Shown piece after piece: positions 2,211 to 64,000 of a DNA stretch of 64,000 nucleotides (its first letter is position 1; each line of letters begins with the position of its first letter). Origin of the DNA: Eledone cirrhosa (lineage: Eukaryota); assembly GCA_964016885.1 (NCBI GenBank), contig OZ024742.1:93992001-94056000 (forward strand). Direction: 5' to 3'. The translations under genes and the position numbers were made by a program. Below the pieces are notes generated by a model, which saw nothing but the letters and a program-made list of their open reading frames with translations, had not been told where the DNA came from and ran no database searches.

Positions 2211-2263
<53 letters not shown>

Positions 2264-2441
2264 ATTTAGTATATCTACTAACATATGCGTACAGATGTAC
2301 GCTAATGCTACCAAATACACAGGTTATGTCATAGTACCTGGGTGGTTCAATGCAGGAGGATGCAGAACAATAATATAAAAGACGTAAAATAAGAAAATTA
2401 AAAAGAAATTTTAAAAAATTAACTTACTTACTAAAATGTTC

Positions 2442-2523
2442 ACTCCAACTAATTAGTTTCTGCAATGCGATAAAGACAGTTACGTAATCCAACTGTCGAG
2501 AATTCATTGCGTCATCAGGGAGT
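2442..2523 (-). ncRNA. Type I hammerhead ribozyme (array unit 1)
   Basis: Minus strand: actcc-CTGATGA-cgcaatg..gacagtt/aactgtc..cattgca-GAAA-ctaattag-TT-ggagt. Confidence 0.8.
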
Positions 2524-2985
2524 CTATTCTCAGCTAAGTCTCCAGGCAATGCGCGGACACTGGGGACTCATATAAAAATAATAATAATTCGGTAGATGGA
2601 ACAGCTAGCGGGGCTGGATTCCATATACTGAAAAGCTCGCTGTCTCAGGTCAAATGGCAGATTCTAAAGAATCAATCACGTGACACTGAGGCTAGTCGGT
2701 AGGAGTGGGATGGCAAGATGACAGAAGCCTACTATCACACCAATAAATTAGTAGTGGTTTTGGCAGGTTTGCTCGACAAATAAGTAATTTGGAGATAAAT
2801 ATAGAGAATTTAGTATATCTACTAACATATGCGTACAGATGTACGCTAATGCTAGCAAATACACAGGTTATGTCATAGTAACTAGATGGTTCAATGCAGG
2901 AGGATGCAGAACAATAATATAAAAGACGTAAAATAAGAAAATTAAAAAATTTTTTTTTAAAATTAACTTACTTACTAAAATGTTC

Positions 2986-3067
2986 ACTCCAACTAATTAG
3001 TTTCTGCAATGGGATAAAGACAGTTACGTAATCCAACTGTCGAGAATTCATTGCGTCATCAGGGAAT
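2986..3067 (-). ncRNA. Type I hammerhead ribozyme (array unit 2)
   Basis: Same motif; stem I attcc/ggagt with a G-U pair. Confidence 0.75.
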
Positions 3068-3509
3068 CTATTCTCAGCTAAGTATCCAGGCAATGCGCGG
3101 ACACTGGAGACTCATATAAAAATAATAATAATTCGGTAGATGGAACAGCTAGCGGGGGCTGGATTCCATGTACTGAAAAGGCAGATTCTAAAGAATCAAT
3201 CACGTGACACTGAGGCTAGTCGGTAGGAGTGGGATAGTAAGATGACAGAAGCCTACTATCACACCAATAAATTAGTAGTGGTTTTGGCAGGTTTGCTCGA
3301 CAAATAAGTAATTTGGAGATAAATATTGAGAATTTAGTATATCTACTAACATATGCGTACAGATGTACGCTAATGCTAGCAAATACACAGGTTATGTCAT
3401 AGTAACTAGATGGTTCAATGCAGGAGGATGCAGAACAATAATATAAAAGACGTAAAATAAGAAAATTAAAAAAAATTTTTTTTAAATTAACTTACTTACT
3501 AAAATGTTC

Positions 3510-3591
3510 ACTCCAACTAATTAGTTTCTGCAATGGGATAAAGACAGTTACGTAATCCAACTGTCGAGAATTCATTGCGTCATCAGGGAAT
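3510..3591 (-). ncRNA. Type I hammerhead ribozyme (array unit 3)
   Basis: Same motif as unit 2. Confidence 0.75.
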
Positions 3592-4439
3592 CTATTCTCA
3601 GCTAAGTCTCCAGGCAATGCGCGGACACTGGGGACTCATATAAAAATAATAATAATTCGGTAGATGGAACAGCTAGCGGGGGCTGGATTCCATGTACTGA
3701 AAAGGCAGATTCTAAAGAATCAATCACGTGACACTGAGGCTAGTCGGTAGGAGTGGGATAGTAAGATGACAGAAGCCTACTATCACACCAATAAATTAGT
3801 AGTGGTTTTGGCAGGTTTGCTCGACAAATAAGTAATTTGGAGATAAATATAGAGAATTTAGTATATCTACTAACATATGCGTATAGATGTACGCTAATGC
3901 TAGCTAATACACAGGTTATGTCATAGTACCTAGGTCGTTCAATGCAGGAGGATGCAGAACAATAATATAAAAGACGTAAAATAAGAAAATTTTAAAAAAA
4001 TTAAAAAAAATTAACTTACTTACTAAATTATATACTTACTTATATTATTGTTCTGCATCCTCCTGCATTGAACCACCTAGGTACTATGACATAACCTGTG
4101 TATTTGCTAGCATTAGCGTACATCTGTACGCATATGTTAGTAGATATACTAAATTCTCTATATTTATCTCCAAATTACTTATTTGTGGATCAAACCTCCC
4201 GAAACCACTACTAATTTATTGGTGTGATAGTAGGCTTCTGTCATCTTACTATCCCACTCCTACCGACTAGCCTCAGTGTCACGTGATTGATTCTTTAGAA
4301 TCTGCCATTTGACCTGAGACAGCGAGCTTTTCAGTACATGGAATCCAGGCACCGCTAGCTGTTCCATCTACCGAATTATTATTATTTTTATATGAGTCCC
4401 CAGTGTCCGCGCATTGCCTGGAGACTTAGCTGAGAATAG

Positions 4440-4521
4440 ACACCCTGATGACGCAATGAATTCTCGACAGTTGGATTACGTAACTGTCTTTATCCAATTG
4501 CAGAAACTAATTAGTTGGAGT
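4440..4521 (+). ncRNA. Type I hammerhead ribozyme (inverted unit)
   Basis: acacc-CTGATGA-cgcaat...attgca-GAAA-ctaattag-TT-ggagt; one stem I mismatch. Confidence 0.65.
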
Positions 4522-4594
4522 GAAAATTTTAGTAAGTTAATTTTTTAAAATTTCTTTTAAACTTTCTTATTTTACGTCTTTTATATATATATAT

Positions 4595-5010
4595 AAGTAT
4601 GTACACGTACATACATATATGTATACCGACGTACAGTAGTATGTATATATATATACATACATGCACACATATATATATGCACGTATGGATTCACCGAACA
4701 TTTATTATAATGCTCGGTGTGTTTGTAAACAAACATCCCGTATTAAGCCGTAGTGTCTAGCAACCACCGTTGCTCGTTTGTTCAACACTGACAAAGGAAC
4801 GCTGTACTAGTTTCAAGCTTGTTAGCTATCGTCAGCAACGTATACCTTCCTGCCAGATTGTTGAACGTATATACTTACCTTATGCATATTAACGGCTGAG
4901 TAGCCCAATTTGCATATCGAGTGGGTTAATCGGCCGGGGGCACCGAAAACGATAAACGGAAAAAATGAAACGATATTTCATTTCCCACTCTTAGTACGGC
5001 TGTTAGAGGC
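4595..5010. repeat. Diverged solo relative of the ~470 bp unit arrayed at 62115-64000
   Basis: Shared blocks: gacgtacagtag, tgttcaacactgaca, tactagtttcaagcttgttagctatc, attaacggctgag, ccgaaaacgataa, cactcttagta. Confidence 0.85.
4799..4841 (-). ncRNA. Minimal type I hammerhead ribozyme
   Basis: Minus strand: acgttg-CTGACGA-tagct aaca agctt-GAAA-ctag-TA-cagcgt. Confidence 0.85.
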
Positions 5011-5034
5011 ACAAAACAAAGAAAAGAATCCCCG

Positions 5035-5077
5035 GTCACTGATGAGGTCACAGAATGTGTGACGAAAGAACTTTGAC
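5035..5077 (+). ncRNA. Minimal type I hammerhead ribozyme
   Basis: gtca-CTGATGA-g gtcaca gaatg tgtgac-GAAA-gaac-TT-tgac. Confidence 0.7.
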
Positions 5078-5166
5078 AATATATGAACAACCGTCCGGTT
5101 GTGGAACCAACCAACCAACCGGAAATTTATAATTTTTTTTAAATTTATAATTTAATTTATAATAAA

Positions 5167-20496: not shown

Positions 20497-20521
20497 AATA
20501 TATATATCTAAGAACTGACTA

Positions 20522-20577
20522 ACTGCCTGATGAGGTCATAGCCATTCAATAGCTATCATCGAAATATATATAGCAGT
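20522..20577 (+). ncRNA. Type I hammerhead ribozyme
   Basis: actgc-CTGATGA-ggtcatagc cattcaata gctatcatc-GAAA-tatata-TA-gcagt. Confidence 0.8.
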
Positions 20578-20618
20578 AAATAAAGGATTATGAGTTCATG
20601 CAATTGTCTTATGTTTCG

Positions 20619-20668
<50 letters not shown>

Positions 20669-20709
20669 CGAAACATAAGACAATTGCATGAACTCATAAT
20701 CCTTTATTT

Positions 20710-20765
20710 ACTGCTATATATATTTCGATGATAGCTATTGAATGGCTATGACCTCATCAGGCAGT
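20710..20765 (-). ncRNA. Type I hammerhead ribozyme (inverted copy)
   Basis: Exact reverse complement of 20522-20577. Confidence 0.8.
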
Positions 20766-21258
20766 TAGTCAGTTCTTAGATATGCCAGCTCTGTGTTTAT
20801 GGTGTTGATGGTTTTAGAGCCTTGGGACATATGAGCTTGTTAGGGATTATTTAATGTAGTCAGCAGGAATAATCTTAATTCTCATTGGTCAGTGTGTAGA
20901 TGCTAGTAGGGTTGGTATTTTACCTCAAAGAGGCAGGTGGTGTTGTAAAGTTCAAACCGTCAGGCAAGATGACAATAGTTCCATATGACTGATTTTCACA
21001 AAAAGCATTCCTGGTCAGATATATATTCAATTGAGGTTTATAGTATGAAATTTGATACTACAGGTCGTTCTTAAATTGAGGAATTTATGTGGGGTGGTAC
21101 TACTGAAAATTATGGTTAGAGTCAAATACTAGAAAGTTTACATATAAAAAGACTCATCATTCCTTAAATACTAGTCCCACTTCCTCAAATCACCACATAA
21201 GTCCTAATCTGTCCACTATTAAATAGTCAACGCATACAGATACTCGCACATATATACA

Positions 21259-28699: not shown

Positions 28700-28703
<4 letters not shown>

Positions 28704-29288
28704 GTAAACGGAATAGAAAATGCTGACAAATTGTTCACAGTTGAAAAATGGTTTAATTAGGAATAAAAGAGTATTAGGGATTGTATGGGTTAGTATTCAG
28801 TTGTGGTTTTAAGTTTTTAAGTTTTTACCGGTTGCGCATTTCTAAATGCTTTTCAAAAATAATTTTGAGATAGAGTGTCCGTGTTGTTTGCTCTGATCTG
28901 ATTAGTTTTGGGAATTCTACCTATTTTTATGTTAAAAAAGTGGCTCCAGCGTTACTTTGGTGTTGCAAAAATTCTTGTGGTCAAAACAATTTTGATTGGT
29001 CGGTAGAGGTCATGTGAATGTAAAAAAATTGATTTTGCGCCAAGACTGTTTTTATGTTAAAAAAGTGGCTCCAGCACTATTTGGTGTTTGCAAAAATTCT
29101 TGTGGTCAAAACAATTTTGATTGGTCGGTAGAGGTCATGTGAATAAAAAATTGTTTTTTCGCCAAGATTGAGAAATGACTCTTTCACGACAAATATGTGT
29201 GTGTGTGTGTGTGTGTGTGTAGTAGTAGTAAGGTGTTCGATGTTGTGATAATGGTTAGCAGGGATGTGTGTCAGATGGCTATTAAGAT

Positions 29289-29333
<45 letters not shown>

Positions 29334-29684
29334 GCAGAGTAATTCGTGGTAGCAGGGATGGTCAGTAAGAATGTGTCTGAAAGCAATGGGGGGTAATTTA
29401 GCATGTCAAAAGATATTTTTCAGCTTTTGTCTTATACGGAGAAGTGCGTGTGTGTGTGTGTGTGTATAAGTCTCTTTGTATGTTAATGAACGCGTGTGTA
29501 TGTGTGTGTGTATATATGTGTGTGTGTGTGTGTGGGGGTGGACCAGTATTTTTTTCCCCCTGGTAAAATGGTGTACATTATTCGATTTTTTCAGTAAAAT
29601 CGGTTCTCTTAATAGAACATCAAAAATCTTAACAATAAAAGGTGTGAAATGATATTCACTACATATATATACACATACATATAT

Positions 29685-29750
<66 letters not shown>

Positions 29751-30037
29751 TATACACATATATTTTTCTGTGTTGCACCATAGAGCATGTGTGTTTACGT
29801 ATGTCATTGTGTTTATATGTGGGTGGAGATGTGTGCTGATGTAGGTATGTATGTTAACGTGTGTATGTTGTAACAAATACGGACCCCGTCTAAACACTTC
29901 TCCCTAAGACGAACCCACAACATACACTCGTTAACATACACACCTACATCACCAAACATCTCCACCCACATATAAACACAATGACATACGTAAACACACA
30001 TGCTCTATGGGGCAACACAGAAAAATATATGTGTATA

Positions 30038-30107
<70 letters not shown>

Positions 30108-30254
30108 ATATATGTATGTGTATATATATGTAGTGAATATCATTTCACACCTTTTATTGTTAAGATTTTTGATGTTCTATTAAGAGAACCGATTTTACTG
30201 AAAAAATCGAATAATGTACACCATTTTACCAGGGGGAAAAAAATACTGGTCCAT

Positions 30255-30297
<43 letters not shown>

Positions 30298-30478
30298 CAC
30301 ACACACATACACACGCGTACATTAACATACAAAGAGACTTATACACACACACACACACACACACGCACTTCTCCGTATAAGACAAAAGCTGAAAAATATC
30401 TTTTGACATGCTAAAATACCCCCCATTGCTTTCAGACACATTCTTACTGACCATCCCTGCTACCACGAATTACTCTGC

Positions 30479-30545
<67 letters not shown>

Positions 30546-31118
30546 ATCTTAATAGCCATCTGACACACATCCCTGCTAACCATTATCACAACATCGAACA
30601 CCTTACTACTACTACACACACACATATTTGTTGTGAAAGAGTCATTTCTCAATCTTGGCGCAAAACCAATTTTTTATTCACATGACCTCTACCGACCAAT
30701 CAAAATTGTTTTGACCACAAGAATTTTTGCAAACACCAAATAGCGCTGGAGCCACTTTTTTAACATAAAAACAGTCTTGGCGCAAAATCAATTTTTTACA
30801 TTCACATGACCTCTACCGACCAATCAAAATTGTTTTGACCACAAGAATTTTTGCAACACCAAAGTAACGCTGGAGCCACTTTTTTAACATAAAAACAGGT
30901 AGAATTCCCAAAACTAATCAGATCAGAGCAAACAACACGGACACTCTATCTCAAAATTATTTTTGAAAAGCATTTAGAAATGCGCAACCGGTAAAAACTT
31001 AAAAACTTAAAACCACAACTGAATACTAACCCATACAATCCCTAATACTCTTTTATTCCTAATTAAACCATTTTTCAACTGTGAACAATTTGTCAGCATT
31101 TTCTATTCCGTTTACCAA
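28700..31118. repeat. Near-perfect 2.4 kb palindrome (arms ~1.2 kb, ~45 bp spacer), each arm with a ~125 bp tandem duplication
   Basis: ttggtaaacggaatagaaaatgctgac at 28701 is inverted at 31092-31118; arms differ mainly in microsatellite length; spacer ~29871-29916. Confidence 0.95.
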
Positions 31119-31148
31119 TATATAATAACTTGTGTGTTACACCTCTAT

Positions 31149-31252
<104 letters not shown>

Positions 31253-33761: not shown

Positions 33762-33828
33762 TATTTTATCTGATGAGGACGTACTGTTGAAGATAGCTCA
33801 GTACCTCTGAAATATGTATAATAAAATA
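33762..33828 (+). ncRNA. Type I hammerhead ribozyme in a ~240 bp insert between (TA)n tracts
   Basis: tattttat-CTGATGA-ggacgtactg...cagtacctct-GAAA-tatgta-TA-ataaaata. Confidence 0.8.
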
Positions 33829-35989: not shown

Positions 35990-36583
35990 TAAAACATAGT
36001 GAAATATTTGAAAAATATCTCAAGAAAGGCAAAAGTTTAACGGGCAAAAAAATATATAAATAAAAGTAATGCAAGAGATATATAAAAATAAAATAAGGAA
36101 ATATAGTTAGGGTATGTGTATAAATGTGTGTATATTCACTCACGAATGTACATATGTGTGTATGTACAAATGCATGTGTATAGTGAAAAAATGTGTGCGT
36201 AAGTACATATATGAGGGCAAGCATATCAGTATATGTGTGACCACAAATGCGTATATAATATATGTTGAAAAAGAAATTGTAAGATAATAGAATTAACGCA
36301 CATCCAGACTCAGGTACTAAGGATTGAAATATATACACATACAAGTATGAAAGCACGCGTATAAACACACACACACGCGTAACCACATACATGCGAGTGA
36401 TATATACAGGGAAGGGAGTGTATCAGTCAAAGCAGTGTCAGGCTGAAGGTCGATACAGATATAAAAATGAAAAAATGAAAAAATATATGAGAATAAAAAA
36501 ATTAAATCAAAGAGAAAGTAAGAGGGAGGGGTTATCAATTACGAAGAAAAAATAGAAAACAAACATAGGTTCGTACATACACA

Positions 36584-38288
36584 TCTTTATATATATAAAA
36601 GCGAGGATGTGTGTGTGTCTGTGTATAACTTTGCATGCTTAAGGCTTTCACAATTACCAACTGAATTTAACCAAAGTTTCTGTGCACGTTGCACAGGTCG
36701 TTAATATTGTCACATCACAAACATTTTTCAAATCGAACCCCGTTGAGCAATGAAAAATCAATATCAGAATTATCGGTAGAAATATTGATGTAAGGGAGAT
36801 AACAAACTCTATTGACAATCCTTATAAAAAAGGGAGATAACCAACTTTTCAAGCGTTCTGGCGGATTTTCGGATTTTTTATACATTAACGGCATCCTGCT
36901 GTTCAAAAACTTCAAGTGCACCTGGAGAACGGTCAGAGAGTATATTTTACGAATGCATCAGCTGCTCAGTTAGCACAAGAACCAAAGGATACTACTCTTA
37001 CCGCTTTCTTTAAACTATGTCAAGAGGATCCATTTGCTAAAAACTTACTATATCCACAAGTCCCATCTTACTATACCTGGGACAAAAATACATGGAAGCG
37101 AAGTAAAACAGGACAGTCTGTCGAAGGTTATTCAGGCATCAAGTTCAACGAGTGCTTGGGCAGAGTTTATACTGTGCCTCCAAACCAACACGAGTGCTTC
37201 CATCTTCGCATGCTACTACAAGAGGTCAGATGACCTACCTGCTTTGATGATCTCTGAACGTTAGACGGACAAGTTCTTCCAACATACTCAAAGGCATGTT
37301 TGAGGCGTGGATTGCTGGAAGATGGTTCGCAGTGGGATGCAACGATGGCGCAAGTTGCTCTTTCACATCCCCTGCCAGCCTAAGAAATGTATTTGTGGTA
37401 CTTTTGCACTCGTGCAACTTATCTGATGCTCTGTCCTTGTGTATGAAATATAGGAATGAACTAACAGACGACTGCAGACACCAAGCACAATTGCTGCTTC
37501 CAGAAATAGAGGTCGGCTTTAGTAATGAATTATACAACAGAGCTCTCATTGATATTGAGGACAAGTTAGCTCTGATTGGCGGAAAGGTTTTACGTTACTA
37601 CGGTTTACCAGAAACTCATCGTACAGACTCAAACAAACTTCCTACATATATCATACAGGAGACTTCTTATGACATCCAGGATCTCGGCCTCTACGTCACA
37701 GATAATGAGCCAAAACTTCTAGCTGATCAGCGACTGGCTTATACCACCATTACTGAATCGGTATTTCAAAGAAGAGGTGGCATATTTTTCCTCGATGCTC
37801 CAGTGGGGACAGGAAAAACTTTCGTTACTAAACTTCTTCTTGCAAAGGTTAGACAGAATAAGTACACAGCAATAGCAGTTGCGTCCTCTGGAATTGCAGC
37901 AACTTTGCTCCCTGGTGGAAGGACGGCACATTCAGTTTTTAAATTGCCCCTTGATTTGGAAAAATTGGAAACTCCTACATGTCATATCACCAAAGACTCC
38001 GAAAGGGCTCATCTGCTACGAAGGTGTCACCTTATTGTTTGGGATGAGTGCACAATGGCGTACAAAGGTGCTCTTGAGGCACTAGACAGATCTTTGCAAG
38101 ACATACGGGATTGCAGTGATGTTATGGGGGGTGTCACCCTTCTGCTATCAGGAGACTTCAGACAGACTCTTCCTATAATACCGAAAGGAACAAGAGCAGT
38201 TGCGGTAAATGCATGTCTTCTTTTACTTCCTAGCTGTATATTCTTAGCATAATTACAAACCCCGAGCAACGCCGGGTAAATCTGCTAG
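36584..38288 (+). mobile_element. Internally deleted Helitron
   Basis: A|TCtttatatatataaaa ... cccgagcaacgccggg taaatctg CTAG|T; the empty A|T site is visible in the opposite arm near 40990. Confidence 0.92.
36916..38252 (+). pseudogene. Helitron Rep/Hel fragment (PIF1-family SF1 helicase)
   Basis: HLENGQRVYF, TTLTAFF, GRVYTVPP..ECFHLRMLL, FFLDAPVGTGKT, AVASSGIAATLLPGGRTAHS, IVWDECTM, LLSGDFRQTLP; stop/frameshift near 37233-37340; C-terminus missing. Confidence 0.93.
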
Positions 38289-38670
38289 TATATATATATA
38301 TAAATATATATATAAATACGTACAGACAAAAGCACATACATGCGTACACACATACAAAGGCGCGCATACATACACACGAAGCACATATATATATACGTAC
38401 ATGTACATCTAATCACACGCACGCACGCGACTATATGTATATATATATATATACATATACATACACATACGTATATATACATATATATATATATACATAT
38501 ACATATACATATACACACACACACTTGTATATAAGTATGTAAAAAACAGAGATATAAAAACGCACATACACACATATACACACACGCGCGCACATACGAA
38601 TGCATTCGTATACATATACAAATACGCATTCACACACATTCACGCTCACACGCATAGATGCAATATAAAA

Positions 38671-40323
38671 ATAGACAATAGAACAGAAAAACTTGCTAAA
38701 CGTAATGCCTATATCACCCTCAAAGATCACAAACCTGATTTTATTAATCGTCCTAGTTGTAGATTAATCAACCCTGCTAAGACTGAAATCGGTCTTTCTA
38801 GCAAAAAAATATTAAATAATATAAACAAACATATTAGAAGTAAGTCTGAATTACTCCAATGGATAAATAGCTCTTCCGTAGTACATTGGTTTAATAATAT
38901 TAAAGATAAAAACAGTTCTAGATTCACCCAATTTGACATTGTAGACCTCTACCCGTCTATTACTCACCCTCGTTTAACGAAAGCCTTAAATTTCACTAGA
39001 AAGTTTATCAATATTTCTGATATTGAACAGAATGTCATTTTGCATTCTAGAAACACTTTACTATTTAATAATAATGACATTTAGGTAAAGATATCTAACC
39101 CAGAGAACCCATTCGATGTCTCAATGGGTTCTTTTGACAGTGCTAACGTGTGTGATTTAGTCGGCCTATTCCTCCTACACACACTTAAAGAGAAATTCCC
39201 TAACCATACCTTTGGGCTTTATCGCGACGATGGTCTAATACTTTACCATACCACTATAGGCCATAACTTAGATAGATTAAGGAAAGACTTAATAAAGACT
39301 TTCGCTAGTTTTAATCTTAAAATTACCATTGACACTAACCTTTCCAATGTCAATTTTCTAGATATAAACCTAGATCTGCCTACTGCTTCTTATAAACCGT
39401 ACCATGAACCGAATAAAAATTTAAAATATATAAATAAAGGCTCTAGCCATCCTCCTATATTTTTTAAAAATCTTATCCCTAATATTAGCCGTAGGATCTC
39501 TATCCTCTCTTCCTCAGAAGCTATTTTCAATAAGGCATCCCCCTACTATAATAAAGCCCTTCAAAATAGCGGATTTAGCAAACCGATAAGTACATACCCA
39601 ACAATACTAACTCCTTTAAACATAATAATAGGAAGAAAAAAAAGAATCTGGTTCACCCCCCCCCACTCTTTAGCAGTTAAAACTAATGTAGGCAAAACAT
39701 TCCTAGAGCTCTTAGATGAACATTTCCTTAGAACACATAGATACTATAAGCTCTTCAATAGAAACTGTGTCAAAATCAGCTACTCCTGCGGTCCCCCTAT
39801 TAAATCTTATATCCTCAATAAGAAAATAGCCAGAGAACATCAAAATTGCTCCTGTAGAGTCAAAAGTGAATGCCCATTACAAGGTAAATGCAACATCAAA
39901 GCCATTGTATATGCGGCTAAAGTGACAACCACCAGCAACAACCTACCAGCCACCAGCGAACGATATGTGGGTATGACACAAGACAAATTCAAAACGCGTT
40001 ATTACTCACATGTCGCTTCTTTCCGACATCCTGAAAAAAGATTTACAACAGCTCTGGCTAGCAGAATATGGGATTTGAAAGACCAAGGTATCCAATATAA
40101 ATTAGATTGGTCAATTTTGAACCAATCTAAAGAATATGCAATAGGAACAAGAAGATGCGCACTCTGCATCAGTAAAAAATATTGGATTTTACAGAACCTT
40201 AAGTCACCAAAAACATGCCTAAATGCAAAAACAGAAATGTTCACCAGTTGCCCACACATGAAATCACACTTGCTTTCCAGCTCATATAAACTTAACTCAC
40301 TTTCAGATACTTATCCTCCATAA
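38671..40323 (+). pseudogene. Penelope-like (probably Naiad) reverse transcriptase + GIY-YIG endonuclease, 5'-truncated
   Basis: In-frame ITLKDHK..CRLINPAK, QFDIVDLYPSI, a TAG at 39082, MGSFDSANVCDLVG, YRDDG, CSCRVKSECPLQGKC, AIVY..YVGMT, CALC, CPH. Confidence 0.92.
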
Positions 40324-40823
40324 ACTCTTCTTCACTTTCCTTAAATTACCCTCTTTACAGACTTCTCAGTCTGATTTACTTTTATTTTTATTTTTAACTT
40401 TATTTTTACTTCACATCCACCAGTGACCCCCCCCCCTGCTTTATGATTCACTTACTTTACATCTTCACAATTTTACATGTTTTACTTCCCCATTTTCTTT
40501 CACTACCTGATATCACATGTCACTTGCGTTTTTAACTCTAGATATATTCTGTTGTCTCTCAGCCGCTTTTATGTATGTTTACTTGCGTATAATTTGTACT
40601 CATTTATTCATACGGCTGGTTTTTATATTGTATCTATGCGTGTGAGCGTGCATGTGTGTGTATGCATGTTTGTATATGTATATGAATGCATTCGTATGTG
40701 CGCGTGTGTGTGTATGTGTGTGTGTATGTGTGTTTTTATATCTATGTTTTTTACATACTTATATATAAGTGTGTGTGTGTATATGTATATGTATATATAT
40801 ATGTATATATATATGTATGTGTA

Positions 40824-40857
<34 letters not shown>

Positions 40858-41682
40858 GTCGCGTGCGTGCGTGTGATGTACATGTACGTATATATATATC
40901 TGATTCGTGTGTATGTATGTGCGCCTTTGTATGTATGTACGCATGTATGTGCTTTTGTCTGTACGTATTTATATATATATATTTATATATATATGTGTAT
41001 GTACGAACCTATGTTTGTTTTCTATTTTTCTAGTGTTACTTTATAATTGATAACCCCTCCCCCTTACTTTCTCTTTGACTTAATTTTTTTATTATATATT
41101 TTCCATTTTTTCATTTTTATATCTGTATCGACCTTCAGCCTGACACTGCTTTGACTGATACACTCCCTTCCCTGTATATATCACTCGCATGTATGTGGTT
41201 GCGCGCGTGTGTGTGTTTATACGCGTGCTTTCATACTTGTATGTGTATATATTTCAATCCTTAGTACCTGAGACTGGATGTACGTTAACTCTATTATTTT
41301 ACAATTTCTTTTTCAGCATATATTATATACGTATTTGTGATCACACATACACTGATATGCTTGCCCTCATATATGTACTTACGCACACATTTTTTCACTA
41401 TACACATGCATTTGTACATACACAGATATGTACATTTGTGAGTGAATATATACACAGTACTTATTGTGCATTTCGCCTAACGGCTTAACTTGTCTCTCTT
41501 TCTTTCTTTACGTCCAGTGTGTACTGGAACGAATGATATCAATATTAATGACCTGAAAACAGAGTCATTTTCAGATGTTGACTGAATAAATGGGACTGTC
41601 CATCTTTCTGTATGCACACACGCACACATGTGCATACACACACACACATTTATATATACATATATGTATATATGAATATATA

Positions 41683-61297: not shown

Positions 61298-61379
61298 CAC
61301 GCGTACAAATCGAAAGAGATATGTTTCACCAGGAAGTTGTTGACTGAAATAGAATAGCCTATGGGTTCATCAGCGCGTG
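61298..61379 (-). ncRNA. Type I hammerhead ribozyme with a long stem III
   Basis: Minus strand: cacgcg-CTGATGA-acc...ggt-GAAA-catatc tctttc gatttg-TA-cgcgtg. Confidence 0.8.
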
Positions 61380-61939: not shown

Positions 61940-62054
61940 TAAAAGTTACGGGCGAAAGAGAGGAACATCCATTGTCTTTTGTCTCTAACGCGAAGGAATA
62001 CCTATGATTCCTAGCAGACAACTGACGATGGATATTCTTTTCTTTCGCCCGTAA

Positions 62055-62060
<6 letters not shown>
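61940..62060. repeat. ~120 bp hairpin (short inverted repeat)
   Basis: taaaagttacgggcgaaaga ... tctttcgcccgtaactttta. Confidence 0.8.
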
Positions 62061-62113
<53 letters not shown>

Positions 62114-62231
62114 TATAAGTTGAAAAAAAATGAAAACGAAATTTCATTTCTCACTCTTAGTATGGCACTTACTTAAATGTAAGTATGTATGTATATGTAC
62201 ATACATATATGTATACAGACGTACAGTAGCA

Positions 62232-62293
<62 letters not shown>

Positions 62294-62442
62294 CAGGTAC
62301 ACATACATATATGCACGCATCAGTTTAGCGGACGCTTATTATAACGCCGCTTTGTTCGTTTGTCAACAAACTGAAGAGCCTGAATTTATGCCATACGGTG
62401 TTAAGGCAACCACGTCACCTTTTTGTTCAACACTTACACGGG

Positions 62443-62487
62443 AACGATGTACTAGTTTCAAGCTTGTTAACTATCATCAGCACCGTT
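62443..62487 (-). ncRNA. Minimal type I hammerhead (unit 1)
   Basis: Minus strand: aacggtg-CTGATGA-tagtt aaca agctt-GAAA-ctag-TA-catcgtt. Confidence 0.85.
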
Positions 62488-62721
62488 TACCCATCTGCCA
62501 GATAGTTGAACGTTCGAAAGTATATACTTTCCTTATGAAAATTAACGGCTGAGAAGCCTAATTTGCATATTGAGTGAGTTAAATCGGTCAGGTATACCGA
62601 AAACGATAAGTTGAAAAAAATGAAAACGAAATTTCATTTCTCACTCTTAGTATGGCACTTACTTAAATGTAAGTATGTATGTATACGTACATACATATAT
62701 GTATACAGACGTACAGTAGCA

Positions 62722-62759
<38 letters not shown>

Positions 62760-62912
62760 CATACAGGTACACATACATATATGCACGCATCAGTTTAGCG
62801 GACGCTTATTATAACACCGCTTTGTTCGTTTGTCAACAAACTGAACAGCCTGAATTTATGCCATACGGTGTTAAGGCAACCACGTCACCTTTTTGTTCAA
62901 CACTGACACAGG

Positions 62913-62957
62913 AACGATGTACTAGTTTCAAGCTTGTTAGCTATCATCAGCACCGTT
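62913..62957 (-). ncRNA. Minimal type I hammerhead (unit 2)
   Basis: Minus strand: aacggtg-CTGATGA-tagct aaca agctt-GAAA-ctag-TA-catcgtt. Confidence 0.88.
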
Positions 62958-63193
62958 TACCCATCTGCCAGATAGTTGAACGTTCGAAAGTATATACTTT
63001 CCTTATGAAAATTAACGGCTGAGCAGCCTAATTTGCATATTGAGTGAGTTAAATCGGTGAGGCATACCGAAAACGATAAGTTGAAAAAAAAACGAAAACA
63101 AAATTTCATTTCTCACTCTTAGTATGGCACTTACCTAAATGTAAGTATGTATGTATACGTACATACATATATGTATACAGACGTACAGTAGCA

Positions 63194-63235
<42 letters not shown>

Positions 63236-63384
63236 CAGATACACATACATATATGCACGCATCAGTTTAGCGGACGCTTATTATAACGCCGCTTTGTTCG
63301 TTTGTCAACAAACTGAACAGCCTGAATTTATGCCATACGGTGTTAAGGCAACCACGTCACCTTTTTGTTCAACACTGACACAGG

Positions 63385-63429
63385 AACGATCTACTAGTTT
63401 CAAGCTTGTTAGCTATCATCAGCACCGTT
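63385..63429 (-). ncRNA. Minimal type I hammerhead (unit 3)
   Basis: Same motif with a C-to-G change at the first stem I pair. Confidence 0.7.
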
Positions 63430-63829
63430 TACCCATCTGCCAGATAGTTGAACGTTCGAAAGTATATACTTTCCTTATGAAAATTAACGGCTGAGCAGCC
63501 TAATTTGCATATTGAGTGAGTTAAATCGGTCAGGCATACCGAAAACGATAAGTTGAAAAAAATGAAAACGAAATTTCATTTCTCACTCTTAGTATGGCAC
63601 TGTACGTCTGTATACATATATGTATGTACGTATACATACATACTTACATTTAAGTAAGTGCCATACTAAGAGTGAGAAACGAAACTTCGTTTTCATTTTT
63701 TTTCAACTTATCGTTTTCGGTATGCCTGACCGATTTAACTCACTCAATATGCAAATTAGGCTGCTCAGCCGTTAATTTTCATGAGGAAATTATATACTTT
63801 CGAACGTTCAACTATCTGGTAGATGGGTA

Positions 63830-63874
63830 AACGGTGCTGATGATAGCTAACAAGCTTGAAACGAGTACATCGTT
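63830..63874 (+). ncRNA. Minimal type I hammerhead (inverted unit)
   Basis: aacggtg-CTGATGA-tagctaacaagctt-GAAA-cgag-TA-catcgtt. Confidence 0.8.
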
Positions 63875-64000
63875 CCTGTGTCAGTGTTGAACAAAAAGAT
63901 GACGTGGTTGCCTTAACACCGTATGGCATAAATTCAGGCTGTTCAGTTTGTTGACAAACGAACAAAGCGGCGTTATAATAAGCGTCCGCTAAACTGATGC

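Follow-up and report, generated by a model that had tools for sequence, protein, structure and literature searches.

Tandem hammerhead repeats of metazoan genomes have been described as non-LTR retrozymes, and their derivation from the terminal repeats of PLEs has been proposed (PMC7229834; 10.64898/2026.07.22.740005). They are composed of non-coding tandem units of a few hundred bp, each with one type I hammerhead whose helix III is short and palindromic; a U-U pair at the base of helix II is on record, and dependence on PLEs has been put forward in the same sources. The U-U base is also found in axolotl HHR_Amex2 (PMC7229834), and short palindromic helix III motifs are those of dimer-acting metazoan type I hammerheads (PMC4209133).

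PLE insertions comprise partial tandems, an adjacent inverted 5′-truncated copy and a tail that is often present at one end only, and their targets are (TA)n tracts (PMC8557442; PMC2377424). The head-to-head inversions have been explained by self-priming on an antisense template (PMC3846280), and inverted copies are mentioned in the accessible text of PMC3681739 with no mechanism attached. In vitro, a purified PLE protein, Poseidon PAc, cuts and extends both target strands, and two adjacent start sites on the RNA define the tail; the same reaction prefers uncut RNA, and a dimer is predicted (PMC11167929). In the twin or dual priming of L1, a second nick primes a second cDNA, which gives a head-to-head product with short inner microhomology (PMC2837659). 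An application of twin or dual priming to PLEs was not found in the literature searched, and older subscription reviews and supplements may discuss it.

We analyzed a window of 64,000 nucleotides (G000:C3:93992001-94056000) in a 3.0-Gb genome. By its repeat content, the window appears to come from an octopus-type cephalopod. The focal element at its right-hand end is a new family of non-LTR retrozyme, here called family B, whose layout itself is known. Positions in the unit (U) are numbered along 62608-63077 of the window (470 bp). Consecutive units in the same orientation make up an arm; on the outside, arms recurrently end at one of two sites, S1 and S2, and the sequence from one site to the other is called the tail. 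The features are as follows.

62059-62117, no strand: left (TA)n target tract (TRF row and sequence)
62115-63601, minus strand (hammerhead-sense RNA): left arm of family B, three units plus 54 bp
62115-62605: unit 1, 491 bp
62606-63075: unit 2, 470 bp
63076-63547: unit 3, 472 bp
63548-63601: unit 4, partial, 54 bp
62115-62173, minus strand: tail, ~59 bp, from S1 (62115) to S2 (62174-62180)
62233-62293, no strand: internal (TA)n tract of unit 1 (TRF and sequence)
62443-62487, minus strand: type I hammerhead motif of unit 1 (motif scan), predicted cut between 62450 and 62449
62913-62957, minus strand: type I hammerhead motif of unit 2 (motif scan), predicted cut between 62920 and 62919
63385-63429, minus strand: type I hammerhead motif of unit 3 (motif scan), with a private change that breaks the first stem I pair
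63599-63601, no strand: inversion junction with 3-nt microhomology, ACT (arm overlap)
63599-64000 and on to window-equivalent 64129 (L011:4129), plus strand: right (inverted) arm, 531 bp
63830-63874, plus strand: type I hammerhead motif of the inverted arm (motif scan), loop 3 with a private change
2259-4586, no strand: comparison element, family A, with a 544-bp unit (2259-2802) and its own hammerhead with a long stem II
4594-5003, minus strand: relative of the focal unit, diverged to 75% identity, in which core N7 has changed from U to C and a stem I pair from G-U to U-G

The direct-direct-direct-inverted layout of ~470-bp units claimed in the earlier note was found as described: from (TA)n, three units of 470-491 bp and 54 bp of a fourth are followed by an inverted arm. 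TRF reports the array with a period of 472 and 97% matches, and the unit lengths differ because the internal (TA)n tract is shorter in units 2 and 3. The left arm has its outer end at S1 (tailed, unit position 469/1) and its inner end at unit position 52, which is fused to unit position 110 of the right arm. The latter ends 129 bp beyond the window, at S2 (unit position 57) and against a second (TA)n, so that the tail is present at the left end of the element only. A target-site duplication was looked for at the focal locus, where (TA)n on either side would mask it. In comparison with the family majority, units 1 to 3 have 7, 2 and 3 private changes, and there are 7 in the inverted arm; no change is common to any two of them. 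The longest open frame of the focal element has 142 codons and spans a TA tract, and no RT plus GIY-YIG ORF is present in the element. A short imperfect inverted repeat (61941-62058) lies immediately left of the focal (TA)n tract.

Each full focal unit carries a type I hammerhead motif and is a predicted self-cleaving element. The cores lie on the minus strand of the direct units, as had been noted before, at 62474-62480, 62944-62950 and 63416-63422, and on the plus strand of the inverted arm at 63837. The motif of unit 2 has the family-majority form, with the core CUGAUGA, GAAA and a GUA triplet. Helix I has 6-7 bp and is open, helix II has 4 bp with a U-U base, and helix III has 2 bp and is palindromic. 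Every position of the core (CUGANGA / GAAA / UH) is kept in 279-283 of 284 copies, with N7 as the sole varying position (U in 203 copies, C in 80); the copies are mostly close kin, and this conservation may be taken as weak evidence of selection. Subfamilies differ by a swap between G-U and U-G in helix I (202 versus 76 of the 284 copies). The position of the G10.1-C11.1 pair is occupied by U-U in 277/284 copies, and the folding z-scores of the motifs are weak (-0.75 to -1.38). An Rfam scan gave 193 matches; the 150 listed include no hammerhead family and consist only of microRNA models on TA repeats, so that the hammerhead call rests on the motif scan and on conservation. A 37-mer of the hammerhead core had 8,360 exact matches genome-wide and its reversed control had 0, arguing that the focal motif is not a chance occurrence.

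The focal repeat had been described as devoid of similarity to the repeat unit at 2259-4583, i.e., to family A. Analyses with blastn agreed with this; the best local match between the two units is a 52-column AT-rich stretch located at the start sites of both, and it was reached by 1 of 200 shuffles. One correction concerns the 75% relative of the focal unit at 4594-5003, which abuts the family A array. The family A element has the same organization, with a left arm from its own S1 and a right arm ending at its own S2, ~115 bp apart. In the region 4594-5165, the 75% relative starts at its own S2 in the (TA)n that ends array A, and it is head-to-head with the hammerhead terminal repeat of an L023-family PLE; this region is possibly one insertion from two RNAs, or a case of nesting.

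As is typical of retrozymes, family B is made of non-coding tandem units, each with a type I hammerhead motif, and it is dispersed in high copy, with loci on many contigs. We sampled the 28 best-scoring loci together with a position-ordered set, which consists of every cluster (31 in total) formed by the first 100 matches listed for contig C1; loci of a family B2 (L059-L078) were mapped and left out of the counts. The earlier note had proposed scoring the frequency of the inversion and its side relative to the hammerhead strand. An adjoining inverted arm was present in 19 of the 31 position-ordered loci, and all 19 were head-to-head, with the hammerhead-sense 3′ ends outward, so that orientation is not random. 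The remaining 12 have no adjoining second arm; one of them runs into an assembly gap, and another, L128, has two separate arms. The partial tandem with an adjacent inverted 5′-truncated copy (19/31 loci), the tail at one end and the hammerhead-sense 3′ end at the target are features of a non-autonomous PLE. In the accessible text of PMC7229834 and 10.64898/2026.07.22.740005, inverted arms are undescribed for metazoan non-LTR retrozymes; the focal family differs in this respect. The junctions between arms are nearly all distinct between loci, which indicates that the inversion is made anew at each insertion. As an exception, the junctions of L020 and L029 are almost identical, which could reflect descent. 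Duplication of units after insertion is seen at L016 and L034, and in family A, where units 2 and 3 share a 20-bp deletion.

The outer ends of the arms are fixed. In family B they adjoin (TA)n at U469/1 (S1) or at U57-67 (S2), and 32 of 35 curated two-armed insertions pair one S1 with one S2 end; the other three have one non-canonical end, and none has the same site twice. Family A (S1 at U1, S2 at U115) shows S1/S2 pairing in 16/19 insertions, also with no same-site pair. Six further families, namely three PLE families with RT and GIY-YIG frames, the L023 family and two hammerhead repeats, gave one-tailed pairing in 24/24 head-to-head pairs, one L035 pair being probably a duplicate. This one-tail rule is obeyed by copies of ORF-bearing (RT+GIY-YIG) PLEs (L097, L099 and L101-L104). 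The end classes were curated by hand, and the curated count leaves out L018 (whose flanks are as in L017), the single-armed loci and the complex loci L015, L021, L024, L028, L032, L033 and L152. When inspected by eye, L021, L024 and L028 appeared as S1 + S2, and L015, L032, L033 and L152 were ambiguous. Non-canonical ends occur at L012, L015, L032, L142, L152 and L154 in family B and at L058, L161 and L162 in family A, and L033 has a small S2/S2 palindrome within a rearranged (TA)n tract. Among the insertions examined there was no clear same-site pair and one ambiguous fragment. Besides S1 and S2, a minor outer end at unit position 422 is common to two insertions, L154:3971 and L032:7027.

An unselected test combined exact S1 ends (424 matches) with one S2 variant (916 matches) over the first 324 Mb of contig C1. 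Among 53 S1 and 100 S2 ends, there were 9 cases in which an S1 and an S2 end lay head-to-head no more than 10 kb apart, each of them a contiguous element. No S1+S1 pair was found, and a single S2+S2 pair was resolved as two separate S1+S2 insertions, compared with ~11 same-site pairs expected under random pairing (by arithmetic from the end counts). The pairing of two different fixed outer sites, one tailed and one untailed, is new here, whereas the tandem/inverted/tail anatomy was already known. Compared with described EN+ PLE insertions (PMC8557442; PMC3846280), the focal family has no ORF, its tails and those of family A are longer (~60 bp in B and ~115 bp in A versus 30-40), and one-sidedness is near-strict.

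We consider it probable that the focal insertion was made by a PLE enzyme that primed reverse transcription twice, once per nicked target strand. A PLE RT/GIY-YIG protein, probably dimeric, would bind a multi-unit uncut transcript or a circle in trans, and both strands of the (TA)n tract would be nicked. One reverse transcription would start at S1 and the other at S2, ~60 nt upstream, which would leave a tail at one end only, and both would run for variable lengths, through the hammerhead cut sites. Annealing of the two cDNA 3′ ends, through microhomology or a natural palindrome, would then allow either cDNA to serve as template for the second strand of the other. From the polarity of the arms we infer target-primed reverse transcription from both flanks inward, because in the ORF-bearing PLE L023 the ORF, the hammerhead and the tail are on one strand that ends at (TA)n, with the same polarity as in families B and A.

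The inner ends are more variable. All 64 arm ends examined are more than 8 nt away from the predicted hammerhead cut. Four of 32 S1 arms end beside S2 (p=0.03), including that of the focal locus (U52 versus U57). Of 52 junctions inspected by eye, 34 are simple, with 1-5 nt of microhomology in 23, blunt ends in 4 and 1-2 added bases in 7; the remaining 18 have longer inserts or ambiguous alignments. An automatic count of microhomology resolved 15/32 junctions, and the entry for the focal junction (L011) in the tally was taken from it.

Alternatively, each subunit of a PLE dimer may carry its own transcript, one being copied from S1 and the other from S2, as proposed on theoretical grounds for L1 (PMC2837659). 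Such dual priming on two RNAs would explain long overlapping arms without strand displacement, and a diverged B unit is indeed joined head-to-head to a PLE terminal repeat at window position 5003. The strict pairing of S1 with S2 does not obviously follow from it, however, and the arms of the 29 family B loci compared are never divided by subfamily, while in 8 of these loci they share a variant found at no other sampled locus. Shared variants are expected if both arms derive from one RNA, but also if a single source locus is dominant. A search for chimeric two-RNA insertions revealed no PLE ORF in the expected orientation in the flanks of single arms. We regard the use of two RNAs as unlikely.

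Variants also inform on the nature of the template. At L148, a unit that lacks 8 bp and, next to it, one that carries a SNP are seen three times, at L2-L3, R3-R4 and R6-R7, and the unit pair of the short arm matches outer units of the long arm (R3-R4, R6-R7) rather than the inner ones expected from fold-back. This order indicates that the two arms were copied in parallel from a multi-unit template that was itself heterogeneous. A monomer circle as sole template would fit the homogeneous arrays L020, L127 and L153 but not L148; this single locus points to a multi-unit template, with later gene conversion as an alternative.

In a fold-back or self-priming mechanism, a cDNA or antisense RNA would fold and be copied back, and an endonuclease would trim the tail of one arm. 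This model has been published for PLE inversions that are head-to-head and have palindromes at their junctions (PMC3846280), and the tail has been ascribed to endonuclease resolution (PMC8557442). In our data, the arms share variants, 45 of 53 insertions are nested, and a few junctions are near-palindromic (L129, L135 and L016). However, a copy made by fold-back must lie within the first arm, and in 8/53 insertions (4/34 in B, 4/19 in A) neither arm is contained in the other, by margins of more than 100 nt in several cases and of only ~20 nt in two; L022, L041, L125 and L163 are among these loci. Non-nested arms are not predicted by the self-priming of PMC3846280. At L125, which is clearly non-nested, the arm consensuses differ at 0 of 322 compared sites, and the arms share four non-majority variants, three of which occur at no other locus. 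The tail is carried by either the longer or the shorter arm (20 versus 12 in family B), and the junction offsets are spread around the unit: the inner ends of the two arms are at most 25 nt apart in 5/32 cases, with 3.5 expected, and are otherwise scattered. The order of variants at L148 also argues against this mechanism. The junction of L129 falls on a palindrome native to the unit, at which two same-sense cDNAs could anneal too. We therefore judge fold-back improbable for the inverted arms. The earlier note had invoked PLE-type integration with fold-back or template switch; a shared integration mechanism, distinct from satellite slippage, is retained, but the source it gave for the inverted arm is not, in view of the two different outer sites, the non-nested arms and the scattered junctions.

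An ordinary satellite grown by slippage and later inverted at self-complementary (TA)n tracts might account for the units duplicated after insertion (units 2 and 3 of family A; L016, L034), but dispersal over many contigs, fixed ends and a single polarity relative to the hammerhead, together with the location of most junctions outside the TA tract, make it very improbable. An assembly or library chimera due to read fold-back deserves the least credit: the focal junction is bridged by no listed contig or read from independent runs, but a fold-back would mirror unit 3, whereas the inverted arm has its 7 private changes and none of the 3 of unit 3 and ends at the family-wide site against its own (TA)n, and contigs from three runs, as well as raw Illumina reads from a different sample, contain other direct-to-inverted family B joints.

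Taken together, the data favour twin priming over both fold-back and the use of two RNAs; over fold-back in particular, because of the two fixed end sites and of non-nested arms that share rare variants. The one-tail rule, which extends to ORF-bearing PLEs of this genome, and the in vitro properties of PLE protein are both in keeping with it. Several observations count against twin priming. The 45 nested insertions are individually compatible with fold-back. Non-canonical ends, the S2/S2 palindrome of L033 and an untailed palindrome in the window (20504-20783) depart from the rule, 12/31 loci have no adjoining second arm, and the near-identical junctions of L020 and L029 could be due to descent. 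No helper PLE sharing sequence with the family was found among ~30 GIY-YIG loci. In PMC11167929, the start site did not differ between strands, pairing within one molecule being outside that assay.

The likeness to Poseidon PAc lies in the internal start at two adjacent, tail-defining RNA sites. In the accessible text of PMC11167929, these properties are not linked to inverted insertions or to pairing on one target, and the ends described here differ in also sharing 1-3 TA letters with the target. With L1 (PMC2837659), the second nick that primes a second cDNA, the head-to-head product and the short inner microhomology would be common features. In L1, however, the second primer anneals at internal sites that vary, and a deletion separates the arms, whereas here the second site is fixed, the inverted product is the usual case and not a variant, and the arms overlap in sequence. 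Unlike in L1 twin priming, both arms often copy the same stretch of RNA, and this would require either strand displacement or a second RNA molecule.

We lean, with some reserve, towards a broader proposal in which the tandem/inverted/tail anatomy of all EN+ PLEs reflects programmed twin priming. On a single RNA, a dimer would start at two fixed sites, each serving one target strand, and the cDNAs would supply each other's second strand, such that the head-to-head inversion would be the normal product of integration and animal retrozymes would be cargo in this same reaction. The focal element itself is an ordinary retrozyme family, and its value lies in the start-site pairing, the non-nested arms and the shared variants. 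Together with the one-tail rule, the latter two give a prediction that can be tested molecule by molecule in the system of PMC11167929. They provide structural evidence, beyond co-occurrence and phylogeny, that PLE machinery mobilizes animal retrozymes, and they suggest a way for a retroelement to finish its second strand with no primer of its own for that step.

The genome contains 10,597 GIY-YIG candidates, of which 150 were scored; among the resulting loci L079-L110, no PLE terminal repeat similar to family B was found. PLE ORFs located near copies of B or A (L015, L023, L028, L051, L091, L100, L102) were considered as helpers and rejected, as they have their own terminal repeats or the wrong orientation, which indicates that the B and A copies there are nested insertions. 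PLE-type families have repeatedly inserted into B units and into the (TA)n tracts that bound one another, giving rise to nested clusters (L019, L028, L044, L100, L102, L104, L148). A tandem hammerhead repeat with a period of 459 bp, a long helix II and a U-U base is present at L093:6600-7200.

Other insertions are present in the window. Positions 20504-20783 form a perfect 280-bp palindrome of another hammerhead repeat, tail-to-tail, with (TA)n in the centre and two untailed ends; other copies of that family obey the one-tail rule (L118, L123). A head-to-head insertion at 425-1942 (tail to ~2070) has 436-bp arms around a 188-bp tandem, and by eye its left end is untailed and its right end has a tail of ~130 bp. 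At 28700-31150, there is a head-to-head insertion of a terminal repeat that belongs to a PLE family with an ORF (L099 type); it has one tailed and one untailed end. A 412-codon open frame at 39085-40320 is similar to PLE-like frames and has no Pfam match; it sits inside nested inverted repeats (inverted arms 36125-41456). Further hammerhead-like motifs were detected by scan at 33770-33820 (plus strand) and 61304-61373 (minus strand), the latter ~120 bp from an (AG)n tract, as in family A.
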